Shown piece after piece: positions 1-16,152 of a DNA stretch of 64,000 nt. Source of the stretch: an uncultured Acidimicrobiales bacterium (lineage in GTDB: Bacteria; Actinomycetota; Acidimicrobiia; Acidimicrobiales; SZUA-35); contig CAVZHQ010000001.1 in assembly GCA_963775125.1 (NCBI GenBank), positions 3,227-67,226 on the forward strand. Direction: 5' to 3'. Position 1 is the stretch's first letter. Each line of letters opens with the position of its first letter. The notes under the pieces were generated by a model that saw nothing but the letters and a program-made list of their open reading frames with translations, was not told the DNA's origin and searched no databases. Both the position numbers and the translations under genes were made by a program.

Positions 1-71
1 ACGGAAAGCGGCCGAAGCCGAAGCCCGCGGCGCCCCAGCGCACCGGGGACGCCAAGACACCTCGGGCATAG
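1..71 (+). CDS. 3' end of upstream gene (Lys/Pro-rich tail, product unknown)
   Basis: Frame from position 3 reads GKRPKPKPAAPQRTGDAKTPRA to TAG at 69-71, 8 bp before the next start. Confidence 0.4.
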   Translation, partial: GKRPKPKPAAPQRTGDAKTPRA

Positions 72-79
72 TACCCGTC

Positions 80-1812
80 GTGACTGCTCGATCCGCCCCC
101 CGTCTGCCCCACAAGTCGGCCGCCGAGATTTCGGCTGAGTTGCGCAACAGCTTCGTCGAGTCCCTCTATCGCCTGACCGGGGCCCAAGCCGGCCCCGATC
201 CCGTCTTGGCCGCGATGTTCGAATCGCTCGCCGTCCAGTTCGACCGGGTCTATCAGGAAGCCGACCAGGTCTTTTTCGGCGCCGCGCTCGACGACCTCAT
301 TCGAGGGCTGGGGATGCCGGCTCGATTGGCCCGACCGGCTCAAGCCGTCGTCCAGTTCAGCCAGCTGAGCGCCCGGGAAACGATTTCACCGGAAGTCGAA
401 CTGATCGGATACCAAGCGAGTGGCGAGCCGGCGGCCTTCGCTCCGGATGCCACCATCGATATTGCGCCGGTCGAGATCGTGTTTGCCGGGGTTGCCGAAG
501 GCGGCCGACTGACAACGTTAGGCGGGGCCCGTTTGCCCTGGGTCAATCAGCCGCTCCTGCCCGGCCTGTCGAGCCCGGTGCCGCTCTCGGCCGTCGCCCC
601 GACCCTGTTTCTCGCGTTCGAGGCGGACGCCGGCCACTTGAGCCGCCTTGGGCTGTTCGTCGAAACCGCAAGCCCGGCCTCGACCCTGCCCGCGACCCTC
701 GCCGAGGAGTCCGTGGCTGTTGCTCGACGGCGGCGGGTCGGATGACCGAACGGGGCGTTCTCCGGGCCGCCCGGACCCGTGGCGGGATGCGGCAACTGGC
801 CTTCCTGGCGATCTCCGGCCCCGAATCGAGACCGCAGGCGCCGCCGGCGTCGTGCCGCTGGTCGCCGGCGTGGTCGGTGACGCCGTCTGGCTCCTCCCAG
901 GAAACCCCGGCCGAACGCCGGTGGCGCTCGTCGGATTCCGCCCGCCATTGCCGAGGCGGTGCCGCGCCTGATGCCGGTCGGTCACGAGCAGGCCCTCGAC
1001 CGTCCCTTGGTCTGGCTTCAAATCCCGCTTGCGGCCGGAACTCAGCGCCAAGGCGAGTCAGATTTCTCGGTTTGCCGTCAATTGCGTGACGGGCGTCGAA
1101 CATCGAAATCTGGAGCGAGCAGATCGATTTCCCGTGGCTCGGGAACGTCGTGAGCCATCGCCCGTCCACGGCAACGGACCGGCATGTCCTCGGAGTCCAG
1201 AGCGTCGTCGGCGAGACCGGCGAGCCATATGCCGAGGTCTCCGATCTCGAAACCGCCCCGGGCGTGGGGTCGGTTCCGGTATCTCGGCGCCGGCCGGTTC
1301 GAGTTCGCGCCGGCCCGTCAGGCGAGCGGCCGCTTCGATCTCTACGCCATGCTTCGGATCCTCTATTGCGACGGCGACAGTGCCAATGGAATCGCCGCGG
1401 GGAAGATCGAACAGATTCGGAGCGAGTTGCCGCAGAACCCGTTGGCCCGGGTCACCAGTTTGACGCCCAGCAAAGGCGGGTCTAATCCGCCCGAGTATCC
1501 GGAAGCCAGGCTCCGGTTTGCGGAGCAGCTTCGGACCCGCGAACGGGTCGTGACGGCGGCCGATATCGAGATCGCCGTCCGGGCCACCGAACCTCGGGTA
1601 ACCGACGTCCAGGTCGCGGAGTATTTCGGAAATCACCACGGCCGGTTTTGAGCATGGTGACCATGGTCACCGCGACCGTGGCCCCCGAAGATTTCGCCGA
1701 CCCCGAGGCCGAGTTCGAACGGCTCCGAACCGAGCTTGAAGCCTACCTGTCCGAGCGATGTATGATCGGCCAGCGGATCCAAGTGACCATGGATCGCCGG
1801 AGCCGGCGATGA
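80..1812 (+). CDS. tssF: TssF / baseplate-J-like baseplate wedge protein (multiple frameshifts)
   Basis: N-terminal DPVLAAMFESLA...LDDLIRGLGMPARLARPAQAVVQF; C-terminal GG...E...ARLRFAEQLRTRERVVTAADIE motif (ORF 1184-1651); last frame ends TGA 1810-1812, overlapping next ATG. Confidence 0.72.
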
Positions 1813-2724
1813 ACGCGGCCATGCCGAATTTCGTCGCCCCGACCCGGGGAGTGAAGCAGTCGCTTGACTCGGCTGTTGAGTCGCTCAATCAGCTCGGCGT
1901 CGAAATGAACCGGATTGTCCTCCGAAGCGCGGGCCCCGGGTGGCGTCGCGGCGCGGTCATCGCTCAGGATCCCGCGCCAGGCACCACGCTCCGCCCCGAG
2001 TCGAGGGTCACCCTCACGGTAGCCGGCGCCGGCGCCATCGACACCGCGCCGTTCGCGATGCGCGACAGTGCCGACGGGGAGTTTCGGATCGATAAGTTGT
2101 TTGACTTGTTCGACAACCACTTTCTCCGACTGGGCCACCATATTCGGTCGGCCGGTGGGATGCTGACGCCTGACCGGCCTGGGGGACTATGAAGGTGCCG
2201 CCAGGTGGATCACCGAAATATTTGGCCTCTCGGCCAAACCGTGGCCCAAGGAACGGTGGTACGACGTCGCCCTGGTCGTCCTCGTCCCTTCACCGGATTG
2301 CCGGCCGGCCGGAGGGGCGGCCCTGGCTTCTGGGTGGTGTTCCGGCTTCCGGCGTCGCCGGTTCGGCTGGTGTCTGGGATTGCCCCGGTCCGACCCGAAC
2401 GCCGAACCAGGCTCGGCCGCACGAACGGACGGTTAGGCGTCGACGCCTTGATTGGTGACGGCGTGACCGTCCATACCGCCGTCGAAATCGAGATTGGACC
2501 GGTCGACCTGGAGACGTACTGGCGGTCGATTGCGGCCGCCTGAACGCGGTCAACGCGATGCGTTGTACCGCTTAGTGCTGCCGGCACACGTTCAGAACCG
2601 CGTGGTGGAGCGATGGATCGTTGGGAATCGCGAGGAAGGCGCCGTCCTCGGTGACCGGCAACGCCACGCGGCCCAGGTGTCAACAGTTATCTCGGGACCC
2701 CCGAGCCGAGGAGTGCCCGCGTAA
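1809..2724 (+). CDS. tssG: TssG-like baseplate protein with N-terminal PASTA-like domain (frameshifted)
   Basis: MPNF...GAVIAQDPAPGTTLRPESRVTLTVA (PASTA pattern), then LFDLFDNHFLRL and RLGRTNGRLGVDALIG...IEIGPVDLETY (TssG patterns); ATGA overlap with tssF, TAA 2722-2724. Confidence 0.72.
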
Positions 2725-4372
2725 ATGCAGGATGAACAGTCGTTCCGATCGGTCAACTGGACCACGGTGGATGCTCCTCACCCCGGAGCATTTCCTCCAG
2801 CAAGATCGTCACAATGAGGAGTTGGTCGTTTGGCTGCTTCGATACTGCGTTCCGGTGTCCGGTCTCGTCGGCGGCGGAGTCCGCCTGGACGCGGTCGAGC
2901 AAGGCCTGGCCAAACTCGACCCGAAAATCGACCTGGTCAACGATGGTGATCGGCTCAGAGTCTCGGTCCTCCGCGCGCGGGCCATTACACCGAGCGGCGA
3001 GTTGATTGACGTCGACGAGTCCCGGCCGATCGACGTCCAAGTGAACCGAAGCGATCTGGCCGGGATTAGCGACCTTCTGGTTTACCTGGTGCGCCGGCCT
3101 GAGAAGGAGCCCGATCCTGATTCCGTCGGTCGTGATCAAGCGAACCCGAATCAGGCGGCCTACAGCCGGACCCGCTACGAGGTTCGGCTGGGTATCTCCG
3201 CGGACCGTGGCTGGTCCTCCGTCGCGGTCGCGAGGCTTCGGCGCGCCTCTGAAACGCCGGGTTCGAAAAGGACGGTCAGTACATTCCGCCCTGCGCCTCG
3301 CTCCTGGCGCACAGCGCCCTCTATGACGTGGCCACCAGGATCCAGGCCGAAACAAGGTTACTGGTGGGTGAGTTCCAGCTGGTCCACGAGAAGGCCGGCC
3401 ACTTCGCCGAACGAGTGGCCAGCCGGGGTGTCGACATCCGCGCCGACCTCGATATCCGGAGCTTCGTTGAACGAAGCGGTCCTCGCTCTCGAAACCGCCG
3501 CCTACGAAACCGCCGACCTGACCGTGGCTCCGCAACGGTTCTTCCAGCAAATCCACCGGGCGAATCGGCTGATCGCCTTGGCACTTTCGTTGAGCCAGTC
3601 GAGCCGCCAATTCTTCAAGGATCTCGGCCAAGTCGACGCCTCCTACTCCGAACTGCTCGATTCCGAGCAGGGCGTGCTCCGTACCGCCAAGAGATCTCGA
3701 TCGCCGTGAAGAGCTCCGCCCGGTTGCGACCCGAGCCATCGAGACCCTCACCCGCCTCCGGCGTTTGGTTGCAGCCCTGGCAGGCAAGTACGTCGACTAC
3801 CGGTTGAACGAGTCGATCGAGTCGATTCGCTTCATGCTCGATCGGGATGGCGAACAATTCTCACTCAAGCCTGTGTCGTCGCCGTCGCACCCCCAACGCG
3901 AAGGCGACCTCCTCACGTTCGTCTTTACCCAGCTCGAACTCGCTGGGCGCCACGAGTACCGGGTCGTCCTCACCGGTGACCCGAGAGCCGCGGCCGGATG
4001 GGCGGTTGGGCAGGAACTCAGTGTCTCGATCCGGGTCAACGCCTCAGGAGGACCCCGGCCGCCGATGTCGAGTTCAGTCATGTGCGAGGTCGAGGGCCAA
4101 AGGAACTTTGCCGTCAACTTCGATACCCCGCAGGACGTCACCACGATTGCTGGGCTCACCGTCACCGTCCAACCGGGGCAGGGAATCCGCGGCGCCGTGC
4201 TGTTCCGCCGCCGCCTGGGAATGGCCAGCCCCGGCGCCGCGGGGGCGATGCCGATGGCGCCGGCACCAGTGGCGTCGCCACGCCCGTAGCCCCGCCGATT
4301 CAGGCCCCGCCCCCGCCGCCCCCGCCTCCAGCGGCCCCTAAAATCACGCTCAAACGCCCGGGTCAGGGCTGA
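2725..4372 (+). CDS. tssK: TssK-like baseplate protein with atypical C-terminal domain and Pro-rich tail (frameshifted)
   Basis: GAGGAG RBS, ATG directly after TAA; SVNW..GMLLTPEHFLQQDRHNE and RARAITPSGELIDVD match the TssK N-terminus; pieces in ORFs 2621-3709, 3328-3807, 3765-4289, 3998-4372. Confidence 0.65.
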
Positions 4373-4389
4373 TCTGAGTCGAGGAAACC

Positions 4390-7054
4390 ATGGATCTCAA
4401 TCGTCTTTCGATGGACCTGACCGCGGCGCCGAAAGAGTCGCGCCGGGTCGCTACCAAGGCCGGGCAGGGGGTACATCCAGGCCAAGCACTTGTTGATGGC
4501 GCTGCTTGATCCGAAGGGGGCGTTAGGCCGGACCGCCGGCAAGCTCGGCCTGGATGCCGCCGGGGGTTCTTCGCCGGGTCGAGGCAGTCCCCGATGGGGC
4601 CGATGCCGTCAAAGCGGAGCCAGGGCGCCAGCCCGTGGCCGGCCGAACCTTGCGCTCGATCTGCTGGACCGGGCCACCGCCGCTGCCGACCAGAAGGGCA
4701 GCCACACGGTCGGCCGCTCCGAGGTGGCGCTTGCCGCGGCCAGCTCCGATCAAGCGAATATCGGACCGGCGCTTCGGGACGCCGGTTGGACCGTGGACAA
4801 ACTCACTGCCGCCCTCCGGTCGCCTGAAGTGATGCAGCCGACCGAGGAAAAGGCAGCCGAAGCAGGCGGCAGCGTACTGGCAAAGTACACCCGGGACTTG
4901 ACCGAGGCCGCCCGGGGCGGCAAGATCATGCCGGTGGTCGGCCGCGATTCCGAAACCAGAAACGTGATCCAAACCCTGCTCCGAAAGACCAAGAAACAAT
5001 CCAGTTCTCGTCGGTGACCCTGGGACCGGCAAAACCGCTGTGGTCGAAGGCTTGGCTCTCAGGATCGCTGCTGGTGACGTCCCGGAATCGCTCAAGAAAT
5101 GCCGCCTCTTGGCGCTCGACCTCACCGGCCTGGTGGCTGGAGCCAAGTACCGGGGCGAATTCGAAGAGCGGATCAAGGCGATTGCCGACGAGGTCCGTGA
5201 ATTGGACGACGTCATTCTCTTCCTTGACGAAATCCATACCCTGGTCGGCGCGGGCGGCAGCGCCGGTGGGATGGACGTGGCCAATATTCTCAAGCCGGCC
5301 TTGGCTCGTGGCGAACTCCGGTGCGTCGGCGCCACTACCTTCGACGAATATCGTGAGTCGATCGAAAAAGACGGCGCCCTCGCCCGCCGGTTCGAAAAGA
5401 TCGTCTGCGATGAGCCTGATGACGAAATGACTCTGGCCATGTTACGGGGTGTCAAGGGCAAGTACGAGGCCCATCACGGCGTCGCCATTGTCGAGGAGGC
5501 GCTCCAGGCCACGGTCAAATTGGCCCGTCGCCACATTCGCGACCGGTTCTTCCCCGACAAAGCCTTCGACATTCTCGACGAAGCCGCCGCTCGGCTCCGG
5601 ATGCAACGCGAAGCGAAGCCCAATGTGATCGATGAGAAGGAACGGGCGCTCGTTCGGCTCAAGACGAAGCAAGAGGCCATCAAGGCAAGCGGCGAGGGCG
5701 ATGCGCCCGCGGTGGCGAAAGAGATCAAAGCGGCCGAAGCGGAGCTGGCGGTCGTTGAGAAGCGTTGGGCCGAAGAGAAGGCCGTCGGCGACGGCCTCCA
5801 GACGACCCGCAAGGCGACCTCGGAAAAACAGGCCGAGCTCGAAGCAGCCGAAGGGGCCGGCGACGTCGCCAAAGCGGCCGAGCTCCGCTACGGAGCCCTC
5901 AAGTTCCTCGGTGAGCAAGAGGCTGACCTGCTCAAACGCCAGGTCGTGATCCTCGAGCTCGGGGTCTTGGTGCCCCACGAAGTGCGGGCAACGGACGTCG
6001 CCGATGTGGTGGCCAGGCGGGCCGGCATTCCGATCTCGCGCATGATGGAGAGCGAGCGCGACCGGCTTTTGAAGCTCGAAGAGCGTTTGGCGAGTCGCGT
6101 CATCGGGCAGCCCGAAGCGGTCGACGCGCTGGCCGAAGCAGCCCGCCGGATGCGGGCGGACCTCAGGAAGAAGCGGAAGCCGGCGTCGTTCCTGTTCGTC
6201 GGACCGACCGGCGTTGGGAAGACCGAACTCGCCAAAGGCCTCGCCGAGGCGCTGTTCGACGACGAGAGCGCCCTAATTCGGATCGATATGGCGGAGTACA
6301 AGGACTCCGGATCGATTTCGGGGTTGATCGGTTCGAGGCCGGGCCTCGTCGGCTCCGAGCAAGGTGGGTTCCTGACGGAGCAGGTCCGCCGCTCTCCCTA
6401 CTCGGTGGTGCTGTTCGACGAAATCGAAAAGGCCCACGCCGAGGTGATGGACCTGATGTTGGGTCTCCTCGACGAGGGGCGCCTGACCGACGCCAAAGGC
6501 CGACTGTGCGACTTCACCAACACCATCGTCCTGTTGACCTCGAATCTCGGCGTCAAAGAGGCCAATGCCGTTGCCAAGACCAATGAGGAACGGCGCGACA
6601 TCATCATGAAGGTCGTCCAGTCAAGCCTGCGGCCCGAAATCTTCAACCGCCTCGGGGGCGTCATCCCGTTCAACGCCCTTGAGATGGACACCCTGGAAAT
6701 CATCGTCGGGATGCATCTCAAGAGCCTCGGCAGCCGGCTGAAAGAGGAGTACAAGGGCACCCTCGAGGTCGACCCGGACGCCGTCACACTGCTCGCAACC
6801 CTGGCCTATGACCCGATGTACGGGGCTCGGCCGGTCGAGCGGACCATTGACCGAAGCATTCTGAGCCGCTGTCCCGCCTGATCATCGGTGGCGACGTGAC
6901 CGCGGGGACGGTGGTTCGGGTCGTCAGGGATGGCGATGAGGTCGTTCTGTTAGCGGGGACCAAAGAGGAAGTCGACGCCGAGGCCCTGGTGGTCAAGGCC
7001 GATGCAGCCAAGCGCGCAGAAGCCGAAGCGAAAGGCGAGAAGGAGGCTCCATGA
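4390..7054 (+). CDS. ClpB/ClpV (TssH)-type AAA+ ATPase (frameshifted)
   Basis: GAGGA RBS; [33 protein letters not shown], coiled-coil [30 protein letters not shown]; ends TGA 7052-7054 overlapping next ATG. Confidence 0.9.
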
Positions 7055-8174
7055 AACGGTTGGCATTGGTGCTCGTCGCGGGGCTCTGCTGGGCCCCAGC
7101 CGCGGAAGCCCAGTTTCCGTTCTTCAAGAAAAAGAAGAAGGAGCAGCCGCCGGCCGAGGCCGCCGCCAAGGGTCCCGCCGAAACCGCGGCCCCAGGAGCC
7201 GCTCCGCCGGCACCGGCCACCGCCGATGGGCCTCAGCAGTCGGGTGCCGCGCCGGCGGTTGCGGCCCCATCCGCTCCAGCCCCCGCCCCGGGTCAGGCCA
7301 AGGGCCTGACGCCCGAGCAAGAGGAGGCCCTCCAGGCCGAGATCGACCAGGCGATCGGGGCCGATGCGGTCGTCGACACCTCGGTCGGAAAAATCACCGA
7401 GCGAATGAGCCGCTGGCAGCGGCTCCTGTCAAGCTCCCACTCCAGGACGAACGCCGCCAGGCGGCCCAGCAGGCCTTCGACCGGGCCAAGACCGACCTCG
7501 ACCTTGCCAAGGCCAAGAGCGCTGCGCAAGGCAATGCCGGCGAGGACTTGAAAAAAGGCCATTGCCGACAAGCTCCAGTCCGCCGCCGCCGCCGTCCAGT
7601 CAAAGGACTGGGGCAACGCCGAGCGCGATGCGACCTGGGTCATCGAGCGCGACCCGGAGAACAAACGAGCCGAACGAATTCTTCAGCAAGCCGCAAGCGG
7701 CCGGAAACTGAGCGATCTCCTGTGGATGCTCGGCATGCTTGCCGCGGTCCTCGTGGTCGTTGCCGTTCCCTTGGTCCTAGTGGGGAAATGGTACGCCAAG
7801 AAGCGGGAGGAGCGTCTTTCCAAGGAGCAAACCGCGGCAGCCAACCGCGCCGCGGTCCTTCAGATCGTCGATGGCTTGTCCCGTGGCAAGTTGATTACCC
7901 TCGACAAGGACAAAGCCACCTTCAAGATCGGCGCCGCGACCGGGCCAGGCGACACCGAAAAGAACGATCTGATCCTCAGCGATTCGGCCACGCTTGTCTC
8001 CCGCTACCACTGCAGTCTGATCCGGCGGGCCGGCGATTATTTCTTCGTCGATTCGAGTCTAACGGCACTGCGGTCAACGGCGATCTGCTCAAGCGAGGGG
8101 AGCACTATCCCCTCGAGGATGGCGACGAGATTACGGTGGCGGACGTGTCCCGGATCAAGTTTCTCCACGCCTGA
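7051..8174 (+). CDS. Signal peptide / Pro-Ala linker / TPR-like / TM / C-terminal FHA domain protein (frameshifted)
   Basis: [20 protein letters not shown] signal peptide; TM followed by KWYAKKREER; FHA motifs FKIG...NDLIL...VSRYHC...DSS-NGTAVNG...LEDGDEI. Confidence 0.75.
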
Positions 8175-8176
8175 CG

Positions 8177-8998
8177 GTGGTAGTCCCGGGCTATCAGCTG
8201 GTCCGCCGACTGTCGTTAGGCGGCGGACCCACTGAGGTGTGGAGCGCCCGCACTTCGATTGGCGGCGAGGCGGTCGCCCTCAAGATCCTCAGGCAGTGTG
8301 CCTCAGAAGACCAGCGACTCCGGTTTGCCGCCGAGCGGGCTCTGCTCGGCCGGCTGGGCGGCCGCCACGGCGTCATTCGGCAGCTCGGCACCGTCGACGC
8401 CCCCCCCGCGATCGTCCTGGAACTCATGCCGGGCGGGAACCTCCGCACCCGGATCGGGGAGGCCCCCGTGTCACAACCGGACGCGATTCGTCTTGGGATC
8501 GACACGGCTCGCACGCTTCAGTGGCTCCATGAGCGACAGGTCATTCATCGCGACGTGAAGTCGAGCAACGTACTCCTCGCTCTGGACGGGTCCTCCAGGT
8601 TGGCCGATTTCAGTGTGGCTGCTGAAGGCGATCCTCCGCGGAGCCTCCCGGATGGCTGGATTGAGGAAACGGTCGGGACGCTTGGCTACGCCGCGCCCGA
8701 GTTGCTCCGAGCGCCGAATACGGCAACGCCGATGATGGACGTCTACGGGCTCGGTGCGGTCCTCTATGAGATGCTGACCGGTCGGCTACCGGCCATGATG
8801 GAGGGAGACGAGGACGAGCTCCAACTCAGGGCCAGGGTTGCCGCTGGGGCGCAGGCCCCGCCCCTCCGGCCCGGGGTCGACTCCGCGCCCTGGCTGGCAG
8901 CGGTCGTCATGCGGGCTCTCGACCCCAATCCCGCCACTCGCTTCCAAGCGGCTCGTGACGTCGAAGCGGCCCTCCGAAACGGGTCTAGCGCGGTGTGA
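8177..8998 (+). CDS. Hanks-type Ser/Thr protein kinase, soluble kinase domain only
   Basis: VALK, HRDVKSSN, LADFS, GTLGYAAPE, DVYGLG, ALDPNPATRF. Confidence 0.92.
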   Translation: MVVPGYQLVRRLSLGGGPTEVWSARTSIGGEAVALKILRQCASEDQRLRFAAERALLGRLGGRHGVIRQLGTVDAPPAIVLELMPGGNLRTRIGEAPVSQPDAIRLGIDTARTLQWLHERQVIHRDVKSSNVLLALDGSSRLADFSVAAEGDPPRSLPDGWIEETVGTLGYAAPELLRAPNTATPMMDVYGLGAVLYEMLTGRLPAMMEGDEDELQLRARVAAGAQAPPLRPGVDSAPWLAAVVMRALDPNPATRFQAARDVEAALRNGSSAV

Positions 8999-10110
8999 CG
9001 GTGTATTTATCCCGGCGATCGCGGAACCGATCGATGTGGAGGTGCTTGCCGGTGCCGGCCCGATCCGGAACACCTCGCTTGATGGCGGCCTGAATCTGAG
9101 CCATCAGCACCGCATCGAGCGAAAAGTCCTTGACTCGAATCCCCCGGTCGCCAAAGGCCCCGATCAGAAACGTGACCTGTTCGGGGCGGAGGTCACGGGT
9201 CCGAACGTCGAGCGCGCTACTGGGACCGTAGAGGGACACATGCTCCGGATGGTCACGGCCGGTAACTTCGAACTCTCGTTGAAACTGTGCCTGGAAAGCC
9301 CGCTGAGCCTCCGCCACCGCTAGCGCGAACAGCTGGGGGGTCAAATTCGACCTGAGAGAGGCCCCGAGGTCCTTGAAGGAATTCTTGATCCTCGCCAGAC
9401 CCACCGGTCCGGTTCGTTTGTTGAACTGATAGAGATCGACCGCGGCGTTGTTGAAGGTGTTGATGGCGGGAATGAACCAGGCATTGTCGGCGATCGTGCT
9501 GGTCTTGAGCAGGACAAGCGCCTCGGTCAGCTGATTGGCCGCCTCGTCAGTGGCCCCAAAATCCAGCAGGGTAGCTGCCCGTTCGAAACGAGTCGTGGCC
9601 TCGACCATCAGGCTATCGAAAGTCTGCGCATCAAGGTCCGACAGAGTCGGAATCGAGTCGCCAGCGGTGGCCGCGGTCCGGATCCGCTGGATGGTCGTGA
9701 CCGCCAGATAGCCGAGCCCGACGAGGACAACCGAACCCGCAATCAGCAGCCCCCACGGGGTGGTCGACCGAGCGCCACGGACCCGGCGCCTCCGCTGCCA
9801 CCACCGGCGCTTCCGTCCCGGCTCGAGCGCGGTCTCGTATTCCGGCTCAGGCACATCCACGATCGGCTTGACCCGCGGCTCACCGGTGACAAACTCAAAT
9901 CGGGCCGAGGGACCGAGCTCGACCACGGCCCCATCGAGCAACTTGGTCGCCGTCGTGACCGCCGCCCCGTTCAGCCGAACCGTCGTCCCTGGACCGAACG
10001 GTGACAGGTAGTACCCATCCTGCCGCTCGCTGATCGACGCATGCCGCTCGGCCACGCCCGGCAGGTAGACCCGGAGACCGCTTGAAGACGACGACCCAAT
10101 CCAAAACCAG
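8985..10110 (-). CDS. FHA / TM / helical / putative LAS (M15-like) metallopeptidase protein, 5'-truncated at junction
   Basis: FWIG...GVAERHASI...VRLNG...LLDGAVVELG (FHA); Arg-rich patch then TM; C-terminal H..H...ALDV and GTGKHLHID; no native start found before the junction. Confidence 0.6.
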
Positions 10111-10251
10111 CGCCACGCCTTGAATGTCGTCGCGCTTGATCCAGATCTCGGCACCGACGTCCTCGCTGAATCGATCGAGCCGTTCGAGGGGAGTGGGCCA
10201 GGTGCCGAGCCCGGCGCTCGGGAGGTCGCGCAGTCGTTCGAGAAGCGTCAT
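10108..10251 (-). pseudogene. N-terminal fragment of D-cysteine desulfhydrase / ACC deaminase family PLP enzyme
   Basis: LGTWPTPLERLDRFS...EIWIKRDDIQGVAL, breaking off before the expected GGNK PLP-lysine motif; ATGA overlap with nitroreductase stop. Confidence 0.8.
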
Positions 10252-10985
10252 CGCAGTTCGAAGCCGCGATCGGCCAGGAACTGTCGCATGTGCGGCCGAC
10301 GTTCACCGTCGACCAGCGCGGCGATCTCCTCGGTCCAGCAGCTCTCCTTGTTGCCGCCCGTCCGCGCCCGGTAGTACGCCCGCATCGTGTCGTCGTAGTC
10401 AGCGATCTGCTGGGCCTCGGCGTCGAAGGAATAGACGTCTTCTTTCAGGACGACCTCGACCGGGAGCCGGGGCTTCACTTCAGGATCCTGGTCGGGAACG
10501 CCGAGGCACAGACCGAAGACGGGATAGACGTCCCTCGGCAGCTCGAGGAGGTCGCTGACGGTCTGTGGGTCGTTCCGCACTGCGCCGATGTAGCAGATAC
10601 CGAGCCCCATGGACTCGGCCGCTACGACAGCGTTCTGGGCAGCCAACGCCACGTCGATGGTCGCGATCATGAACTGCTCGGTCATGCCCGAGGTCATGGT
10701 CCCGCCTGCCAGTTCGGCGGCACGGCGGGTTCGGTGCAGATCGGCACACCAGACGAGGAACGCGCCGGCGGTCTCGATGTAACGCTGCCCACCGGCGACC
10801 TCGGCAATCCGGGCCCGGACCTCGGGATTCTTGACCCGTATCACGGTCGTGGCCTGCAGGTTGCTGGAGGTGGCGGCGGACAGGCCGCTCTTCACGATCT
10901 CGGCAACCGTGTCATCGGTGAGGGCTTCGTCGGTGAACTTGCGAATGGATCGGTGGGAGCGCAATAGCTGGTGAACGTCGTTCAT
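10248..10985 (-). CDS. nfsA: NfsA/Frp-family NADPH nitroreductase
   Basis: HRSIRKF, AATSSNLQ, AAESMGLGICYIGAVRN, KPRLP. Confidence 0.92.
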   Translation of the reverse strand: MNDVHQLLRSHRSIRKFTDEALTDDTVAEIVKSGLSAATSSNLQATTVIRVKNPEVRARIAEVAGGQRYIETAGAFLVWCADLHRTRRAAELAGGTMTSGMTEQFMIATIDVALAAQNAVVAAESMGLGICYIGAVRNDPQTVSDLLELPRDVYPVFGLCLGVPDQDPEVKPRLPVEVVLKEDVYSFDAEAQQIADYDDTMRAYYRARTGGNKESCWTEEIAALVDGERRPHMRQFLADRGFELR

Positions 10986-11050
10986 GCCCCAGAGCGTACG
11001 GGCAACGGCCGATCCCGGGTAGCGGGGCGCGAACCCAGGCCCCCGGCGAG

Positions 11051-11077
11051 TTAACACAGCCGAAACAAACGAGAAAC
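11051..11077 (+). promoter_or_regulatory. GlnR-binding box upstream of amtB
   Basis: TTAAC-n6-GAAAC-n6-GAAAC, matching the actinobacterial GlnR consensus gTnAc-n6-GaAAc, 66 bp before the amtB start. Confidence 0.75.
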
Positions 11078-11142
11078 GAGGCGGACTCAAGCTGACTGAA
11101 GACTGAACCCGTCTTGTCGCCCGTACGAAAGGCCCCCTCCCG

Positions 11143-12363
11143 ATGGATACCGGTAACAACGCGTGGATCATCGTCTCCGCTGCGCTCGTGCTCTTCATGG
11201 TCCCCGGACTCGCGCTCTTCTATGGGGGCATGTCGCGTTCGAAGAACATGCTGAACATGCTGATGATGAACATGATCTGCCTGGGCATCGTGCCCATCTT
11301 CTGGGTGGTCATCGGCTACACGTTGTCGTCGACCGGAACGGACAACGGCTGGATCGGAACGCTCGATTTCGTCTTCCTCCAGGACATCAACGTGACCGGC
11401 GAGGACGGGGGTGAAGGCCTCAGAAACGTCTTCTACGCCCTGACCTTTGCGTGCATCACGCCCGCCCTGATCTCCGGCGCGGTCGCCGACCGTCTGAAGT
11501 TCTCGGCCTGGATCGCCTTCGTCCCGCTGTGGATGCTGCTGGTCTTCACGCCTGCATGGGCGTGGGTCTTCAAAGAGGGCGGCAGCGGCTGGCTGGCGGC
11601 CCGGGGCAGTCTGGACTTCGCCGGTGGGACCGTGGTGCACGTGGCTGCCGGCTCGGCCTCCTTGGCGTTCGCCATGGTCCTCGGCCGCCGGCGTGGCTGG
11701 CCCGAAGAACCGATGATTCCGCACAACCTTCCGTTCACCATGATCGGCGCCGGCATCCTGTGGTTCGGCTGGTTCGGATTCAACGCCGGGTCGGCGTTCG
11801 CCGCCAACAACGTGGCCATTCAGGCTTTTGCCAACACCTTCATCGCCGGCGCCGCAGCCATGCTCTCCTGGCTGGCGGTCGAGAAGATCCGCGACGGGCA
11901 CGCAACGTCGCTCGGGGCTGCGTCGGGCATCGTCGCCGGTCTGGTCGGCATCACGCCGGGCGCCGGGTTCATGGGTGTCGCCGGGGCGATGGCCGTCGGC
12001 CTCATCGCCGGGGCGCTGTGTGCACTGGCGGTTCGACTGAAGTTCCGGTTCAAGTTCGACGATGCACTCGATGTCGTCGGGGTACACCTTGCGGGCGGTC
12101 TCATCGGCGGCGTGCTGATCGGGGTGTTCGCCAGCCCCGAGTCGCTGGGTGGCGAGTTCGATGCCGGTCTGATCGAAGGCGGCGGGGCCGGACTGCTGGG
12201 CGAGCAGATCTTGGCCAACGTCGTCGTCGGTGTGTTCTCCTTCGTCGTGACCTACGCCTTGGTCAAGGTGCTCGACCTGACCATCGGCCTCCGGGTCGAG
12301 CCCGACGAGGAACGCGAGGGTCTCGACACCACCCAGCACGCTGAAACCGCGTACAACAACTGA
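11143..12363 (+). CDS. amtB: Ammonium transporter
   Basis: PGLALFYGG, DFAGGTVVH, WFGWFGFNAGS, DDALDVVGVH. Confidence 0.97.
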   Translation: MDTGNNAWIIVSAALVLFMVPGLALFYGGMSRSKNMLNMLMMNMICLGIVPIFWVVIGYTLSSTGTDNGWIGTLDFVFLQDINVTGEDGGEGLRNVFYALTFACITPALISGAVADRLKFSAWIAFVPLWMLLVFTPAWAWVFKEGGSGWLAARGSLDFAGGTVVHVAAGSASLAFAMVLGRRRGWPEEPMIPHNLPFTMIGAGILWFGWFGFNAGSAFAANNVAIQAFANTFIAGAAAMLSWLAVEKIRDGHATSLGAASGIVAGLVGITPGAGFMGVAGAMAVGLIAGALCALAVRLKFRFKFDDALDVVGVHLAGGLIGGVLIGVFASPESLGGEFDAGLIEGGGAGLLGEQILANVVVGVFSFVVTYALVKVLDLTIGLRVEPDEEREGLDTTQHAETAYNN

Positions 12364-12449
12364 GCGTTCCCAATCGGCTGTAGACCCTTTTGGCGGTACA
12401 CAGTGCGGAACACGATCCGTCTGTTCAGACCGAAGGGGAGCCACCCGCT

Positions 12450-13826
12450 GTGGGTTACTACGACAACGACACGTACACCAAGGTCATCCTGCCCGAGAGC
12501 GAGATGCCCACGCAGTGGTACAACATTGTTCCCGATCTGCCGGCACCGCCGCCACCGCCACTACATCCCGGCACGCGTGAACCCATCGGGCCGGCCGATC
12601 TCGCCCCGTTGTTCCCGATGGCCATCATCGAGCAGGAGGTCTCGACCGAGAGCTACATCGACATCCCCGGCGAGGTGCTCGACGTCTACCGCTTGTGGCG
12701 GCCGAGCCCGCTGTTCCGTGCACGACGGCTCGAGAAGCTGCTGGGAACACCGGCCAAGATCTTCTACAAGTACGAGGGAGTCAGCCCGGCCGGCTCGCAC
12801 AAGCCGAACACCTCGGTGCCCCAGGCGTACTACAACCACAAAGAGGGCGTGACCAAGCTCACCACCGAGACCGGTGCCGGGCAGTGGGGCTCGTCCCTCG
12901 CATTTGCCACCGCTCAGTACGGGATGGAGTGCGAGGTGTGGCAGGTGGCGGCCTCGTACCGGCAAAAGCCGTATCGCAAGGCGATGATGGAGATCTGGGG
13001 AGCGACGGTCCATTCGAGCCCGTCGGAGGTCACCGAGTACGGACGGTCGTTGCTGGCCGAGAACCCCGATCATCCCGGTTCCCTCGGTATCGCCATCTCC
13101 GAAGCAGTGATGATGGCCGTCGAGGATCCCAACACCCGCTACGCGCTGGGCAGCGTGCTCAACCACGTGTTGATGCACCAGACCATCATCGGCGAGGAGG
13201 CGCTGTTACAGCTGGCCATGGTCGGGGAGACGCCCGACCTTCTGATTGGTTGCACCGGTGGCGGCTCCAACTTCGGAGGCCTGGCCTTCCCATTCCTGCG
13301 GGAGAAGTTGGCCGGTCGCATGAACCCGACCATCCGCTGCGTCGAGCCGGCGGCATGCCCGACGCTCACCAAAGGCGAGTACCGCTACGACTTCGGCGAC
13401 ACCGCGGGGCTCACACCCCTGGTGAAGATGCACACGCTCGGTCACAACTTCATCCCCGACCCCATCCACGCCGGCGGGTTGCGTTACCACGGCATGGCCC
13501 CGCTGGTGTCGCACATCTATGAGTTGGGCCTGGTCGAAGCCATCGCGCTTCCCCAGAGCGAGTGTTTCGAGGCCGCCGTGCAGTTCGCCCGTTGCGAAGG
13601 GATCGTGCCCGCACCCGAGCCGACGCACGCGTTGGCCGCCGCCATCCGCGAGGCGCTCGCGTGCAAGGAGTCGGGTGAGGAGAAGGTCATCCTCACCGCA
13701 CTCTGCGGCCACGGTCACCTCGACATGGCCGCGTACCAGGCCCACTTCGCCGGCGAGCTGGTCGACTACGACTTGTCGGACGCCGAGATCGCCGAGGCCA
13801 TGAAGTCGGTTCCCGTCCTGGACTGA
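12450..13826 (+). CDS. trpB2: TrpB2-type tryptophan synthase beta-like PLP enzyme
   Basis: [32 protein letters not shown]; GTG start after AAGGGGAG. Confidence 0.95.
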
Positions 13827-13858
13827 GCCGTCCCCGCTTGATCGCTAGGGTTCGGGTC

Positions 13859-14533
13859 ATGACCGGCTCGAACCCTGCACAACCGACATCGGTGGCACCG
13901 TCACCAGCAGATCAGTGGGAAGCCCGGTACGGCGGGGCCGACGGTTACTACTACGGAACGGAACCCAACGACTTCCTGAGGTCCATCGTCAGCGATCCTG
14001 TCGTCGACGGGGCTTCGGGGCGGTCGGGCCCACCAACCGCGCTGTGCCTGGCTGACGGGGAAGGGCGCAACGGCGTCTACCTGGCCCAGCTCGGCTACGC
14101 GGTCACGTCGGTCGACCTCACCCAGGCAGGCATGGACAAGGCGGCCCGGCTGGCGGCCGATCGGGGTGTTTCCCTGACGACCGTCGTCGCCGACCTGGCC
14201 GAGTTCGATCTCGGTGAAGGACAGTGGGACCTGATCGTGTCGATCTTCGCCCACACGCCGCCGCCGATCCGTGCCCGGGTGCACGCGGCGCTGGAGCGAG
14301 CGCTCCGGCCCGGAGGGCGGTTCGTGCTCGAGGCCTACACCCCCGATCAGATCGGCCGCGGTACCGGCGGCCCGCCGGTACCGGAGTTCACGATGACCAT
14401 CGATCGGCTGCGCACCGAGGTCGTCGGACTGGACATCGAGTTCGAGCTCGAGATCGTCCGCTCGGTGATCGAAGGCCCAGGTCACACCGGCGACGGCGCC
14501 GTCGTCCAGTTCATCGCCCGCAAACCGGGCTGA
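13859..14533 (+). CDS. Class I SAM-dependent methyltransferase
   Basis: YYYGTEPNDFL, LCLADGEGRNGVYLA. Confidence 0.9.
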   Translation: MTGSNPAQPTSVAPSPADQWEARYGGADGYYYGTEPNDFLRSIVSDPVVDGASGRSGPPTALCLADGEGRNGVYLAQLGYAVTSVDLTQAGMDKAARLAADRGVSLTTVVADLAEFDLGEGQWDLIVSIFAHTPPPIRARVHAALERALRPGGRFVLEAYTPDQIGRGTGGPPVPEFTMTIDRLRTEVVGLDIEFELEIVRSVIEGPGHTGDGAVVQFIARKPG

Positions 14534-14566
14534 GGCCCCATCGTTTGTCCCTCGGTGCCTGGCCGC

Positions 14567-15877
14567 TCAGGTTGGCGCGAATCTGGCCATGTCCGCTCCG
14601 ATCGCCTCGGCGGCGGGTTCGGACACCCCGGCCTCGGCCGCGAAGTCGGTCCAACGCGAGACGGTGCCGGTGACCTCGGCGATGATGGCCTTGTAGGCCG
14701 GGACGCCGAAGCGATCTCCGATTGCCTCGAGGTCCGCTCGGGTGATGTTCTCGGCCTTCGCGTTGATCGTCATCTGATGGCGTGCGACCCATTCGCTGCT
14801 GATCTTGTAGGAGTGGGTCAGGTCGTAGGCGGGAGCCAATGACCATCGACCGTCGGGGCTGCACAGGAACGCGGTGTTCTTGGTGTGGTCGTCGCGGTTG
14901 ACAGCGGCGACGTTGAAAACACATCGGCGGAAGATCTCGGCGGCGGCTTGGCGGCCGAGCGACAGCCGGTCGAGGACGAGCAGAAGGAGCTGTTCGTAGC
15001 TGTAGGCGCCAGGGAGCTTGTAGCTGGCGTGATCGAGGCCGCAAAGGCTGAGCAGATGGAGGCGTTCGTCGCCGGCGGGGCGGTCGAAGCGCCTCGTGAT
15101 GAAGTGGGCTCGGTTCCCCTCCGGGATAAGGCGGGATTCAGCCATCTCGATGCCGGCTTCGGTCGCCATCAGGTAGTAGGCGTACTCGATGCGTCCGTAG
15201 TCGGTGCCCTCGGTGATGACGGCGCCCCGGTCTCGGCCGACGGACGCGCCGTCGAGCTTGACCAGCCAGTGGGTGAACCCTTCCGGCGCATCGAACTGCC
15301 CGGACCGGATCTGGTTGGTGTCGGGGTTGTAGGCCACCAGGGCTTTGGCCCGGGCGCCGCCGGCGGATGCGCCGACCTGGATGAGTTGCTGCAGCGCTTC
15401 GTCGGCGGGAGCATCCGGCCCGAAATCGCCGGTGAGCACCTGGCGGGCCGAGGTCACCAGATCGGCCAGTGCGAGCGCAGTCGGCTCGGCCCCGATCGAC
15501 GTTACGGGCGGGTGGAAGGTGAGCGCGCCGAGTCCGCGCTCTCCGGTGTAGGCGAGGCGATCCAGCGCCGTGATGTCGGAGACGTCGATGCCCTGTCGCG
15601 CCATCCAGGCGTCGACGAGGGCGTTGCCGAAGTCGTCGGGCAAGGCGTCGGCGAGTAGCGGCGGTAGGCGCTTCCAGGTCGGCTCGTCGAGGCCCCGGAA
15701 GGTGAAGACGCCGGACGCGTTTGGCATCCGCAGGGGCGCAAGCTCGATCTGACCCGTCGCCCACTCGGGCGCGTACTCGAAGGCGTAGGCCCCGGCCGTG
15801 GGATCGGCGGCCACCGCCCCCACGGTTCGTCCCCACGCCCGCACTTCGACGACGTCGATGGGTTCGTAGACGCTCAT
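14567..15877 (-). CDS. hipA: HipA-family kinase toxin
   Basis: N-terminal couple domain FEYAPEW...DALPDDFG; SAGGARAKA, RRFDR, NRDDHTKN, LAPAYDL. Confidence 0.93.
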   Translation of the reverse strand: MSVYEPIDVVEVRAWGRTVGAVAADPTAGAYAFEYAPEWATGQIELAPLRMPNASGVFTFRGLDEPTWKRLPPLLADALPDDFGNALVDAWMARQGIDVSDITALDRLAYTGERGLGALTFHPPVTSIGAEPTALALADLVTSARQVLTGDFGPDAPADEALQQLIQVGASAGGARAKALVAYNPDTNQIRSGQFDAPEGFTHWLVKLDGASVGRDRGAVITEGTDYGRIEYAYYLMATEAGIEMAESRLIPEGNRAHFITRRFDRPAGDERLHLLSLCGLDHASYKLPGAYSYEQLLLLVLDRLSLGRQAAAEIFRRCVFNVAAVNRDDHTKNTAFLCSPDGRWSLAPAYDLTHSYKISSEWVARHQMTINAKAENITRADLEAIGDRFGVPAYKAIIAEVTGTVSRWTDFAAEAGVSEPAAEAIGADMARFAPT

Positions 15878-16152
15878 CGGCGGGTTCGGGATGCCTTGGC
15901 CAGCAGGGCCATCGGCGACACGGTCGCCGGCGGCGCGAGGTCGTCGAGCCAGTCCTCGCGATCGAGTTCGCGCAGTACGGCGATCAAGGTGCTGAGACTC
16001 GTGCCAGCGCCTGCTTCGAGGCTGCTGATCGTCGACGTCGACACCCCCGCAGCGCGGGCGAGTTCTCGCTGGGTCATCTGGGCTCGTTTGCGCAGCACGC
16101 GAATCTGTTGGCCGACTGCAGCTTCAAGCTCTTGTGAGGTTCGACGTGCCAC
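15874..16152 (-). CDS. XRE-family HTH antitoxin (HipB-like)
   Basis: IRVLRKRAQMTQRELARAAGVSTSTISSLEAG; 4-bp overlap with hipA; start chosen from GGAG RBS. Confidence 0.88.
   Translation of the reverse strand: MARRTSQELEAAVGQQIRVLRKRAQMTQRELARAAGVSTSTISSLEAGAGTSLSTLIAVLRELDREDWLDDLAPPATVSPMALLAKASRTRR

Follow-up and report, generated by a model that had tools for sequence, protein, structure and literature searches.

A Gemmatimonadota type VI secretion gene cluster joined to an Acidimicrobiales contig, and the lineage without TssJLM, TssN and TssO to which it belongs

The stretch of DNA analysed here (the window, 64,000 nucleotides; G000:C1:3227-67226, where G000 is the source genome, assembly GCA_963775125.1 of an uncultured Acidimicrobiales bacterium, and C1 is its contig CAVZHQ010000001.1) carries at its left end part of a gene cluster for a type VI secretion system (T6SS). 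Contig C1 starts 3226 bases before the window. A listing of open reading frames (ORFs) splits window positions 1-10200 into many short frames, and genes were called by Pfam searches of stop-free fragments together with tblastn searches using the proteins of a clean related locus, L007, which lies intact in a Gemmatimonadota metagenome-assembled genome (MAG). In this way C1:2-13332 reads, in order, as the 3' end of tssC, a small gene, hcp, tssE, vgrG, tssF, tssG fused to a PASTA domain, tssK, clpV, a gene for a transmembrane (TM) protein with an FHA domain and a kinase gene, then a convergent gene for another FHA-TM protein. The order is that of L007, with 62-100% protein identity to its products (tblastn of L007 proteins against G000). 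The genes that an earlier note on this DNA had listed between window positions 80 and 10110 are all present there, by Pfam and by L007 tblastn.

The window opens inside the spike gene, vgrG, of which positions 1-65 (plus strand) are the 3' end; the gene starts at C1:1432, 1794 bases before the window, and L007 VgrG matches C1:1432-3291 at 71% over 621 columns (tblastn), with fragments that match Pfam Phage_GPD and Phage_base_V. The genes that follow, up to and including the kinase gene, lie on the same strand. A tssF-like baseplate gene with several frame changes (80-1809) is 64% identical to L007 TssF by tblastn, residues 1-510 falling in a frame that contains 3 stops and the C-terminal part in a different one; the window gene has no Pfam match. 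The likewise frame-broken tssG (1758-2717) encodes an N-terminal PASTA domain (about 1854-2025; E=1.9e-9) and a T6SS_TssG domain (E=1.9e-7). Some 545 amino acids of TssK are encoded at 2725-4369 in frames 2, 3, 1 and 3, 75-93% identical to L007 TssK (tblastn); the stop-free fragments give a weak TssK match in Pfam, and on the L007 homologue the NCBIfam TssK model covers residues 10-259 (E=2.6e-19, under its cut-off). Next comes a ClpV/TssH-like double AAA+ ATPase with three frame changes (4390-7051; AAA_2 at E=8.5e-55, AAA_lid_9 and ClpB_D2-small; 74-93% to L007 ClpV). Its L007 homologue scores 912 bits against the NCBIfam ClpB model and 700 bits against ClpV1 (TIGR03345), both below the cut-offs.

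Downstream of clpV lie three further genes. The TM-FHA gene (7051-8171, 73-84% to L007 FHA375) encodes a signal peptide and a Pro/Ala-rich, helical part in the periplasm, which one TM helix links to an FHA domain in the cytoplasm. Pfam FHA matches the broken window frame at E=0.0031 (below cut-off) and the intact L007 homologue at E=3.2e-13, the latter protein having hydrophobic segments at residues 4-22 and 227-245. Just after the predicted signal-peptide cleavage site (window 7051-7200; A-x-A-Q, then PFFKKKKK) the protein has four to five lysines, a run that is conserved across Gemmatimonadota members. The Ser/Thr kinase that follows (8177-8998, 273 amino acids, intact frame; Pkinase at E=1.2e-32; 62% to the L007 kinase) has a single stretch flagged as hydrophobic, residues 67-85; this is taken as kinase core and not as a membrane helix, and the kinase is thus putatively soluble. 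On the minus strand, the convergent FHA-TM gene (8985-10106; FHA at E=1.8e-5) lacks its first 32 codons, which are cut off at a junction described below; what is left matches residues 33-405 of the L007 homologue, a protein with one TM helix, at 78% (tblastn). A soluble kinase and two membrane-type FHA proteins, as had been proposed, are consistent with these features: no membrane segment was seen in the kinase, and both L007 FHA homologues have a TM helix.

The C-terminal domain of the convergent protein had been called a peptidase. Its alignment shows invariant D-H-x-E-H, D and H-L-H-x-D columns, and these His, Asp and Glu residues look like a metal site. Pfam gives no match for the domain, a PDB profile search matched only the FHA part, and a fold of the full-length protein likewise gave FHA matches only. 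Modelled alone (mean predicted local distance difference test score, pLDDT, 76), the domain finds nothing at E<=0.001 with Foldseek, the best match being to helical repeats at E 0.058; hhalign against an M15 peptidase returns a probability of 0.4. A search of the ESM Atlas yielded one unnamed cluster at 0.84, a lead only. The peptidase label, unsupported by Pfam, PDB profiles, Foldseek or hhalign against M15, stands unproven.

In L007 the cluster begins with genes for a multi-pass membrane protein and a VWA protein, followed by those for TssB, TssC, a 106-residue protein, Hcp, TssE and VgrG, and then, as in the window, TssF, PASTA-TssG, TssK, ClpV, the TM-FHA protein, the kinase and the convergent FHA-TM protein. 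Of the part before tssF, the 3226 bases upstream of the window hold the 3' end of tssC, the small gene, hcp, tssE and vgrG. Contig C1 begins at codon 384 of tssC, of which the last 62 codons remain; tblastn with L007 proteins finds tssB, the VWA gene and the membrane gene on no contig of G000, and profile searches of this genome with PF05943, PF05638 and PF17541 give no match. The lack of a sheath Pfam match is explained by the contig end, which cuts the sheath gene. Tube, sheath and spike genes had been reported as not visible, which is right for the window, because of its edge and the contig end, and wrong for the contig, where the tssC 3' end, hcp, tssE and vgrG adjoin upstream. Nor is the system incomplete in nature, as had been supposed: related loci have tssB, tssC, hcp, tssE and vgrG directly upstream.

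At its other end the cluster breaks off at a point that can be placed to the base. Homology to L007 stops at C1:13332 and homology to a same-genus genome, G005, starts at C1:13333 (window 10106/10107); when window 8000-16000 is used in a DNA search, same-genus genomes align only from 10107 on (G005 at 86%, G001 at about 80%). The join severs the FHA gene at codon 33 and also splits a host gene: positions 10107-10251 (minus strand) are the first ~48 codons of an Acidimicrobiia gene outside the T6SS cluster, with 82-86% DNA identity to same-genus genomes, which continues at the start of another contig of the genome, C2, with translations that read through C1/C2. The first 18 bases past the junction (10107-10124, no strand assigned) are an exact overlap: C2:1-18, once reverse-complemented, reads the same as C1:13333-13350. 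In G005 the counterpart of the beginning of C2 directly adjoins the junction point and both host parts are contiguous. Contigs C1 and C2 thus belong together, and the assembly has probably placed 13.3 kb from another organism between them instead.

Composition and distribution agree. The tetranucleotide correlation of the piece is 0.938 with the host and 0.983 with the L007 core; among 51 host chunks of equal size the minimum correlation with the host is 0.961, above that of the piece. For the window gene at 12390-13823 a protein from an Actinomycetota MAG matches at 97% identity, and further matches are named Acidimicrobiia or Acidimicrobiales. TssK and TssC were found in none of 40 relatives other than G000, apart from one weak match (E=2.4e-4), in none of 400 from the phylum, where the first look was stricter, and in none of 150 genomes of the class; the failure to find the cluster in these kin is explained by the foreign origin of the piece. 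These 13.3 kb are Gemmatimonadota DNA that meets an Acidimicrobiia contig in the middle of a gene, and they do not belong to the genome in which they were deposited.

The frame changes are unevenly spread. They affect tssF, tssG, tssK, clpV and the TM-FHA gene, with hcp, tssE, the kinase gene and the convergent gene intact, and they are confined to the first 13.4 kb of C1; the other 54 kb of the window consist of ordinary long ORFs. Logan short-read contigs, from two runs of one study and at a depth of 3-5, served for comparison. They show single-base insertions or deletions (indels) relative to the window at 738, 805, 1042, 1091, 1618, 1646, 2282, 2317, 2326/2328, 2541 and 7551, with 11 more that are not itemized here, and one contig of 195 bases has 0 mismatches and two 1-base gaps. 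The shares of the two runs (0.20 and 0.18) are too small for a habitat reading. Stretches that these contigs do not cover, and a skip of 1963 bases (5051 to 7015) in one low-depth contig, were set aside as cross-matching of the two AAA domains or another organism. The frame breaks are probably consensus indel errors of a low-coverage stretch and not gene decay.

The cluster also occurs elsewhere. A search with a TssK fragment returned 149 homologues, and a profile built from 15 of them, run on contigs of one genome per species, gave 204 pattern matches, of which 170 loci were confirmed. Among the best 80 of these 170, which were examined, loci are mostly from Gemmatimonadota and Acidobacteriota and have the same gene order; a cultured acidobacterium, a Terriglobus isolate (L082), carries the cluster. 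That this is a T6SS is not new, since some members, in Gemmatimonadales, Longimicrobium and Bryobacteraceae, are already named TssK by NCBI. Five loci of the family (L038, L043, L060, L063 and L083) come from MAGs that bear the labels Bacillota, Desulfobacteraceae, Heliomicrobium, Methylomirabilota and Arcobacter. Two of them, L038 and L063, nest among Gemmatimonadota or Acidobacteriota rows in a tree of TssC, and for these odd hosts mis-binned contigs are as likely as transfer. In a Gemmatimonadales MAG (L016:9988-14397) tssK and clpV form a single open frame of 1469 codons, either a real fusion or a lost stop.

By gene content the family is a T6SS in the broad sense: it has a sheath, a tube, a spike, a baseplate of TssE, TssF, TssG and TssK (TssE being assigned by position and size only, with no profile match) and a ClpV-type ATPase. 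Its relation to the known types was gauged against three T6SS-iii loci (Hymenobacter, Capnocytophaga, Runella) and one T6SS-i plasmid locus (Leisingera). The TssC of L007 matches PF17541 (DUF5458, the Bacteroidota TssC) at E=1.6e-22 over model positions 18-420 of 430, and the L007 sheath also matches PF05591 at E=4.5e-4; TssC matches neither of the T6SS-i sheath models PF05943 and TIGR03355, and BLASTP of the family TssC against Leisingera TssC finds nothing. Searched against 72,556 plasmids, TssC matched 6 records, all from Bacteroidota and with identities of 21-24%; none of the T6SS-i plasmids was matched. The profiles built from the family's TssB, TssC, Hcp and TssF match the three T6SS-iii loci and not the T6SS-i reference, TssF reaching 48.5 bits against T6SS-iii TssF and Hcp, for which Pfam has no match, 12-22.5 bits against the TssD of the three loci. 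TssK is less partisan: its N-terminal half weakly matches both T6SS-i and Bacteroidota TssK, and its profile scores 29.4 bits against T6SS-i, a value that lies between the 42.9 and 27.4 bits obtained for two T6SS-iii loci. The family TssG matches PF06996, TssK matches PF05936 and TIGR03353 below cut-off, and NCBIfam T6SS models all fall below their cut-offs on family proteins.

A quick maximum-likelihood tree of 30 TssC rows resolves three clades, T6SS-i, T6SS-iii (3 rows, support 100) and the family (25 rows, support 99), set apart by very long branches. TssC identity is 21.5-24% between the family and T6SS-iii, 40-54% within T6SS-iii, and 55% between the Gemmatimonadota and Acidobacteriota members of the family. 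In a FastTree analysis of 88 rows the midpoint splits the family and its allies from T6SS-iii and its allies. The family is a T6SS lineage of Gemmatimonadota and Acidobacteriota whose sheath, tube, TssF and TssK are nearest to those of the Bacteroidota T6SS-iii and which yet forms its own clade. A distinct subtype with its own envelope anchor had been suggested; the first half of that proposal is supported by the separation of the TssC clade from both T6SS-i and T6SS-iii in the quick tree, and the second half stays at the level of gene neighbourhood. Compared with 1.84 billion cluster representatives, TssC gave 149 matches at E<=0.001 and 31 at E<=1e-30, with unnamed full-length relatives ranging from 43% down to about 21% identity. 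Some unnamed full-length sheath relatives (P0246-P0273, 27-43% identity) fall, with and around the family rows, on the side of the FastTree that is away from T6SS-iii; on their sequences, further such sheath lineages seem to exist.

In five whole Gemmatimonadota genomes that carry the cluster, Pfam finds no TssM, TssL or TssJ (PF06761, PF09850, PF12790), no TssN (PF17555) and no TssO (PF17561) over the cut-off, there being one 17.9-bit TssO match elsewhere in one genome. In three of the five, the 20 kb upstream are without TssJLM; what they encode includes zinc-ribbon kinases, a Sel1 protein and a PAAR protein. The accessory-protein profiles match neither TssL and TssM nor the TssN, TssO, TssP and TssR of the Capnocytophaga locus (for TssP, a comparison with one reference sequence only). 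The earlier remark that no tssJ, tssL or tssM adjoins tssK is confirmed by the loci and extends to the five genomes. The family lacks both TssJLM and the TssN and TssO of T6SS-iii.

The clusters do have a conserved accessory set. After clpV, 52 loci had enough flanking sequence for counting, 22 of them Gemmatimonadota-like and 30 others. A TM-FHA gene follows clpV in 46 of the 52 (20/22 and 26/30), with the layout of signal sequence, periplasmic part, one TM helix and cytoplasmic FHA domain; the acidobacterial form, of about 700 amino acids, includes a 3-keto-disaccharide-hydrolase-like domain, and after it come a PP2C phosphatase and a muramidase. The convergent FHA-TM gene is present in 21/22 Gemmatimonadota-like loci and 0/30 others, and the small kinase in 10/22 and 1/30. 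On the other flank, a VWA gene directly precedes tssB in at least 26 of 42 loci (a floor, with only complete ORFs counted); its product has a VWA domain and a C-terminal TM helix, and its N-terminal stretch, which the hydrophobicity scan did not flag, is read as a putative signal sequence. The gene before it encodes, in both phyla, a protein with five or six TM segments rich in glycine and, at the C-terminus, an FHA-like domain; the versions of the two phyla are 30-32% identical (Pfam FHA at E=1.6e-4 in Terriglobus). TssG carries the PASTA domain in 15 of the 17 family members scanned and the TssG domain in all 17. Three features that had first been noticed in the window, the fusion of PASTA to TssG, the membrane-type FHA proteins and the kinase, are conserved.

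Taken together, these results make it likely that the window holds the 3' two thirds of a Gemmatimonadota T6SS cluster, misjoined and riddled with indels, and that this cluster represents a clade of its own near T6SS-iii without TssJLM, TssN and TssO. As to the join, an assembly chimera, in which a low-coverage Gemmatimonadota fragment was attached to a contig end, appears to be the likeliest explanation, because the 18 bases just past the join also open another contig of the genome, C2. The alternative is that the Acidimicrobiia genome, or a minor strain of it, truly carries the cluster as an island acquired recently, implying transfer from Gemmatimonadota to a single-membrane actinobacterium. 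The sequence is, after all, physically on the contig, foreign composition is what any recent transfer would show, and an insertion carried by a minority of cells would give the C1/C2 graph as seen. We nevertheless regard such an island as improbable: the junction cuts both genes in mid-frame, costing the FHA gene 32 codons and leaving the host gene in two pieces, one on C1 and one on C2; nothing typical of a mobile element was seen there; no other contig has tssB, the VWA gene or any other piece of the cluster; the genes occur in no relative searched, save G000 itself and the one weak match; and the piece is full of errors next to a clean remaining contig, as fits a much lower coverage. The same errors would acquire a different meaning if the frame breaks were real and the copy a decaying, pseudogenised cluster. 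At least five genes are broken, and low-depth short-read contigs may themselves be wrong, but this reading is very improbable, given that a 195-base short-read contig is identical to the window save for two 1-base gaps, that indels recur in both runs at sites of frame breakage (738, for example, beside an ORF end at 745), that large deletions are not seen and 62-93% protein identity to L007 is kept across the breaks, and that the breaks end where the foreign piece ends.

The question of what the cluster encodes has its own rival answer, that the family is merely a divergent branch of the Bacteroidota-type T6SS-iii, or else an extracellular or cytoplasmic contractile injection system (eCIS for the former), with no separate standing. 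TssK, TssG and a ClpV-like ATPase, all present here, mark a T6SS rather than an eCIS; eCIS and T6SS-iv are known by tail fibres, a tape measure and an eCIS-type AAA ATPase, and have no TssK or ClpV. There are likenesses to T6SS-iii: the sheath matches PF17541 from end to end, TssB, TssC, Hcp and TssF profiles match, both have a ClpV-like ATPase and both are without TssJLM. A VWA-type domain is found among the envelope proteins of both, in the family as a VWA protein and in T6SS-iii, according to PMC10781749, as the vWA-like domain 2 of TssR. TssF, moreover, weakly matches an NCBIfam model for a putative baseplate assembly protein, and the sole PDB matches of the sheath profile are to a pyocin sheath and Afp3. 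Set against this, TssN was found in none of the five genomes and TssO in none over the cut-off, the VWA profile does not match TssR, and no profile match to TssP was obtained; TssC is 21.5-24% identical to T6SS-iii sheaths that share 40-54% among themselves, and the FastTree midpoint falls between the two groups. The family also differs in that PASTA is fused to TssG, that FHA membrane proteins of three kinds are present and that the locus includes kinases or PP2C. Its hosts are Gemmatimonadota and Acidobacteriota, whereas T6SS-iii is reported, in PMC4793230, to be restricted to Bacteroidetes. On balance it is unlikely that the family is only an outlying T6SS-iii or an eCIS.

A number of considerations tell in the opposite direction and temper confidence in a misjoined fragment of a separate T6SS lineage. 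At the join, no read or contig was seen that bridges or refutes the junction, and a minor strain with a real insertion at the site would yield the same assembly graph; the short-read contigs have a depth of only 3-5, come from one study and may derive from the very sample behind the assembly. The quick TssC tree is saturated, with branches of 6-10, contains 3 rows of T6SS-iii and 2 of T6SS-i from one plasmid, and places T6SS-ii, T6SS-iv and eCIS outside its compass. The TssG profile scores slightly higher against T6SS-i than against T6SS-iii, and the ClpV profile scores alike against the two. The TssC profile finds in the PDB only weak matches, to Afp3 (E=0.012) and to a pyocin sheath (E=7e-4), so that the family may yet lie closer to other contractile systems. 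Absence by Pfam from five MAG-derived genomes is no proof of absence, TssP was represented by its single reference sequence, and TssR and TssQ lay outside the whole-genome searches. With a profile of 5 sequences, the multi-pass FHA protein was found upstream in only 9 of 23 non-Gemmatimonadota loci. The proposals on anchoring and phosphorylation set out next draw on conserved neighbourhood and domain content only, and the system is known here from its genes alone.

Within those bounds a mode of action can be sketched for the proposed lineage. By analogy with what is established for T6SSs in general, a VgrG-tipped Hcp tube inside a TssBC sheath would be built on a TssEFGK baseplate and then fired, and the sheath would be recycled by the ClpV-like ATPase. 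The envelope anchor is probably made up of the multi-pass protein with the C-terminal FHA domain, the periplasmic VWA protein with its C-terminal TM helix and the bitopic protein with the cytoplasmic FHA domain; to judge by their neighbourhood, the FHA and VWA proteins might form or recruit the envelope complex. Threonine phosphorylation may gate assembly or firing, with Ser/Thr kinases acting in Gemmatimonadota and a PP2C phosphatase in Acidobacteriota. That the family constitutes a further T6SS type, sister to the Bacteroidota type, with an FHA/VWA envelope complex, docking or firing switched by phosphorylation, and an input through the PASTA domain of TssG, is a possibility that we advance tentatively, as one that could well prove wrong.

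Such an anchor and its gating would resemble two known arrangements. T6SS-i has a threonine phosphorylation pathway composed of the kinase PpkA, the phosphatase PppA and Fha/TagH. Like T6SS-i clusters, those of the family encode kinase, PP2C phosphatase and FHA domains (the Leisingera plasmid locus holds TagH, PP2C and a kinase), and TagH is what the TM-FHA protein of the window matches with its FHA domain, at E=1e-13 for the NCBIfam model and at 37 bits for the Leisingera protein. The difference is that the family has its FHA domains on membrane proteins, a bare soluble kinase domain in the cluster and no TssJLM. The other arrangement is that of the FHA-bearing inner-membrane ring proteins of type III secretion (the YscD/PrgH family), in which one TM helix likewise joins an FHA domain in the cytoplasm to a part in the periplasm; the Pfam model Yop-YscD_cpl matches FHA parts of the T6SS family at E=2.2e-5 and 2.1e-4 (both below cut-off) and at 2.3e-11. 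The likeness shown is that of the FHA domain, and a ring-forming role for the proteins considered here would be pure conjecture.

Two unrelated solutions to the fixation of a T6SS in the envelope are known, TssJLM in Proteobacteria and TssNQOPR in Bacteroidota. PMC10781749 describes the TssNQOPR membrane complex, including a TssR with a vWA-like domain, and reports that homologues of the complex are not found outside T6SS loci. A lineage that has neither anchor, and yet has sheath, tube, baseplate and ClpV, would, if this is true, stand for a third independent solution, and for a system whose anchor candidates carry phosphothreonine-binding domains. It would not be a rarity, with its 170 confirmed loci in species-level genomes, mostly of two dominant soil phyla, and the anchor question can be put to the test because cultured Acidobacteriota (the Terriglobus isolate, L082) carry the cluster. 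The case also serves as a warning, in that an apparent T6SS in an actinobacterium is here read as an assembly chimera, betrayed by a break in quality, a break in composition and a switch of synteny in mid-gene.

In the open-access full text and bioRxiv preprints searched (supplements and subscription papers lay outside the search), no description was found of a TssJLM-less T6SS of Acidobacteriota or Gemmatimonadota, and no paper in which 'TssG' and 'PASTA domain' occur together. The T6SS so far known from Gemmatimonadetes is, in PMC9113992, of subtype i4b and lies on a Gemmatimonadaceae plasmid, and PMC13098142 gives the same single cases. That system comes from the same phylum but is a T6SS-i by its TssB, which the family is not by any test made here. 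In the passages of PMC13373197, bioRxiv 2024.12.19.629468, PMC9230969 and PMC5900883 that were covered there is nothing on the family, and PMC5900883 does not mention T6SS. What appears to be undescribed is the lineage, together with its lack of known anchors and its set of accessory proteins.

Some minor observations may be added. The acidobacterial form with its PP2C phosphatase can be seen at L082:16584-18181 and L068:16776-17501. In Terriglobus an N-acetylmuramidase with a peptidoglycan-binding domain comes right after the large FHA protein and could be a helper in wall remodelling or an effector. Upstream of a Gemmatimonadales cluster (L088:11479-17006) there are genes for a protein of 476 amino acids, with an N-terminus that is PAAR-like by eye, and for one of 1350; these are candidates for spike tip and cargo. 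Further upstream in Gemmatimonadota (L087:2406-6732, L089:838-4700) lie genes for a 705-residue kinase with a double zinc ribbon, a Sel1-repeat protein and a zinc-ribbon/PEGA protein, which we take as more signalling parts travelling with the cluster. Finally, in the Acidimicrobiia genome proper, contig C7 (G000 C7:85801-89071) has a second VgrG-like match (27%, E=1e-22) and a TssF-like match (34%, E=8e-8), 2 kb apart, a pair that may belong to a contractile injection system of the host itself.

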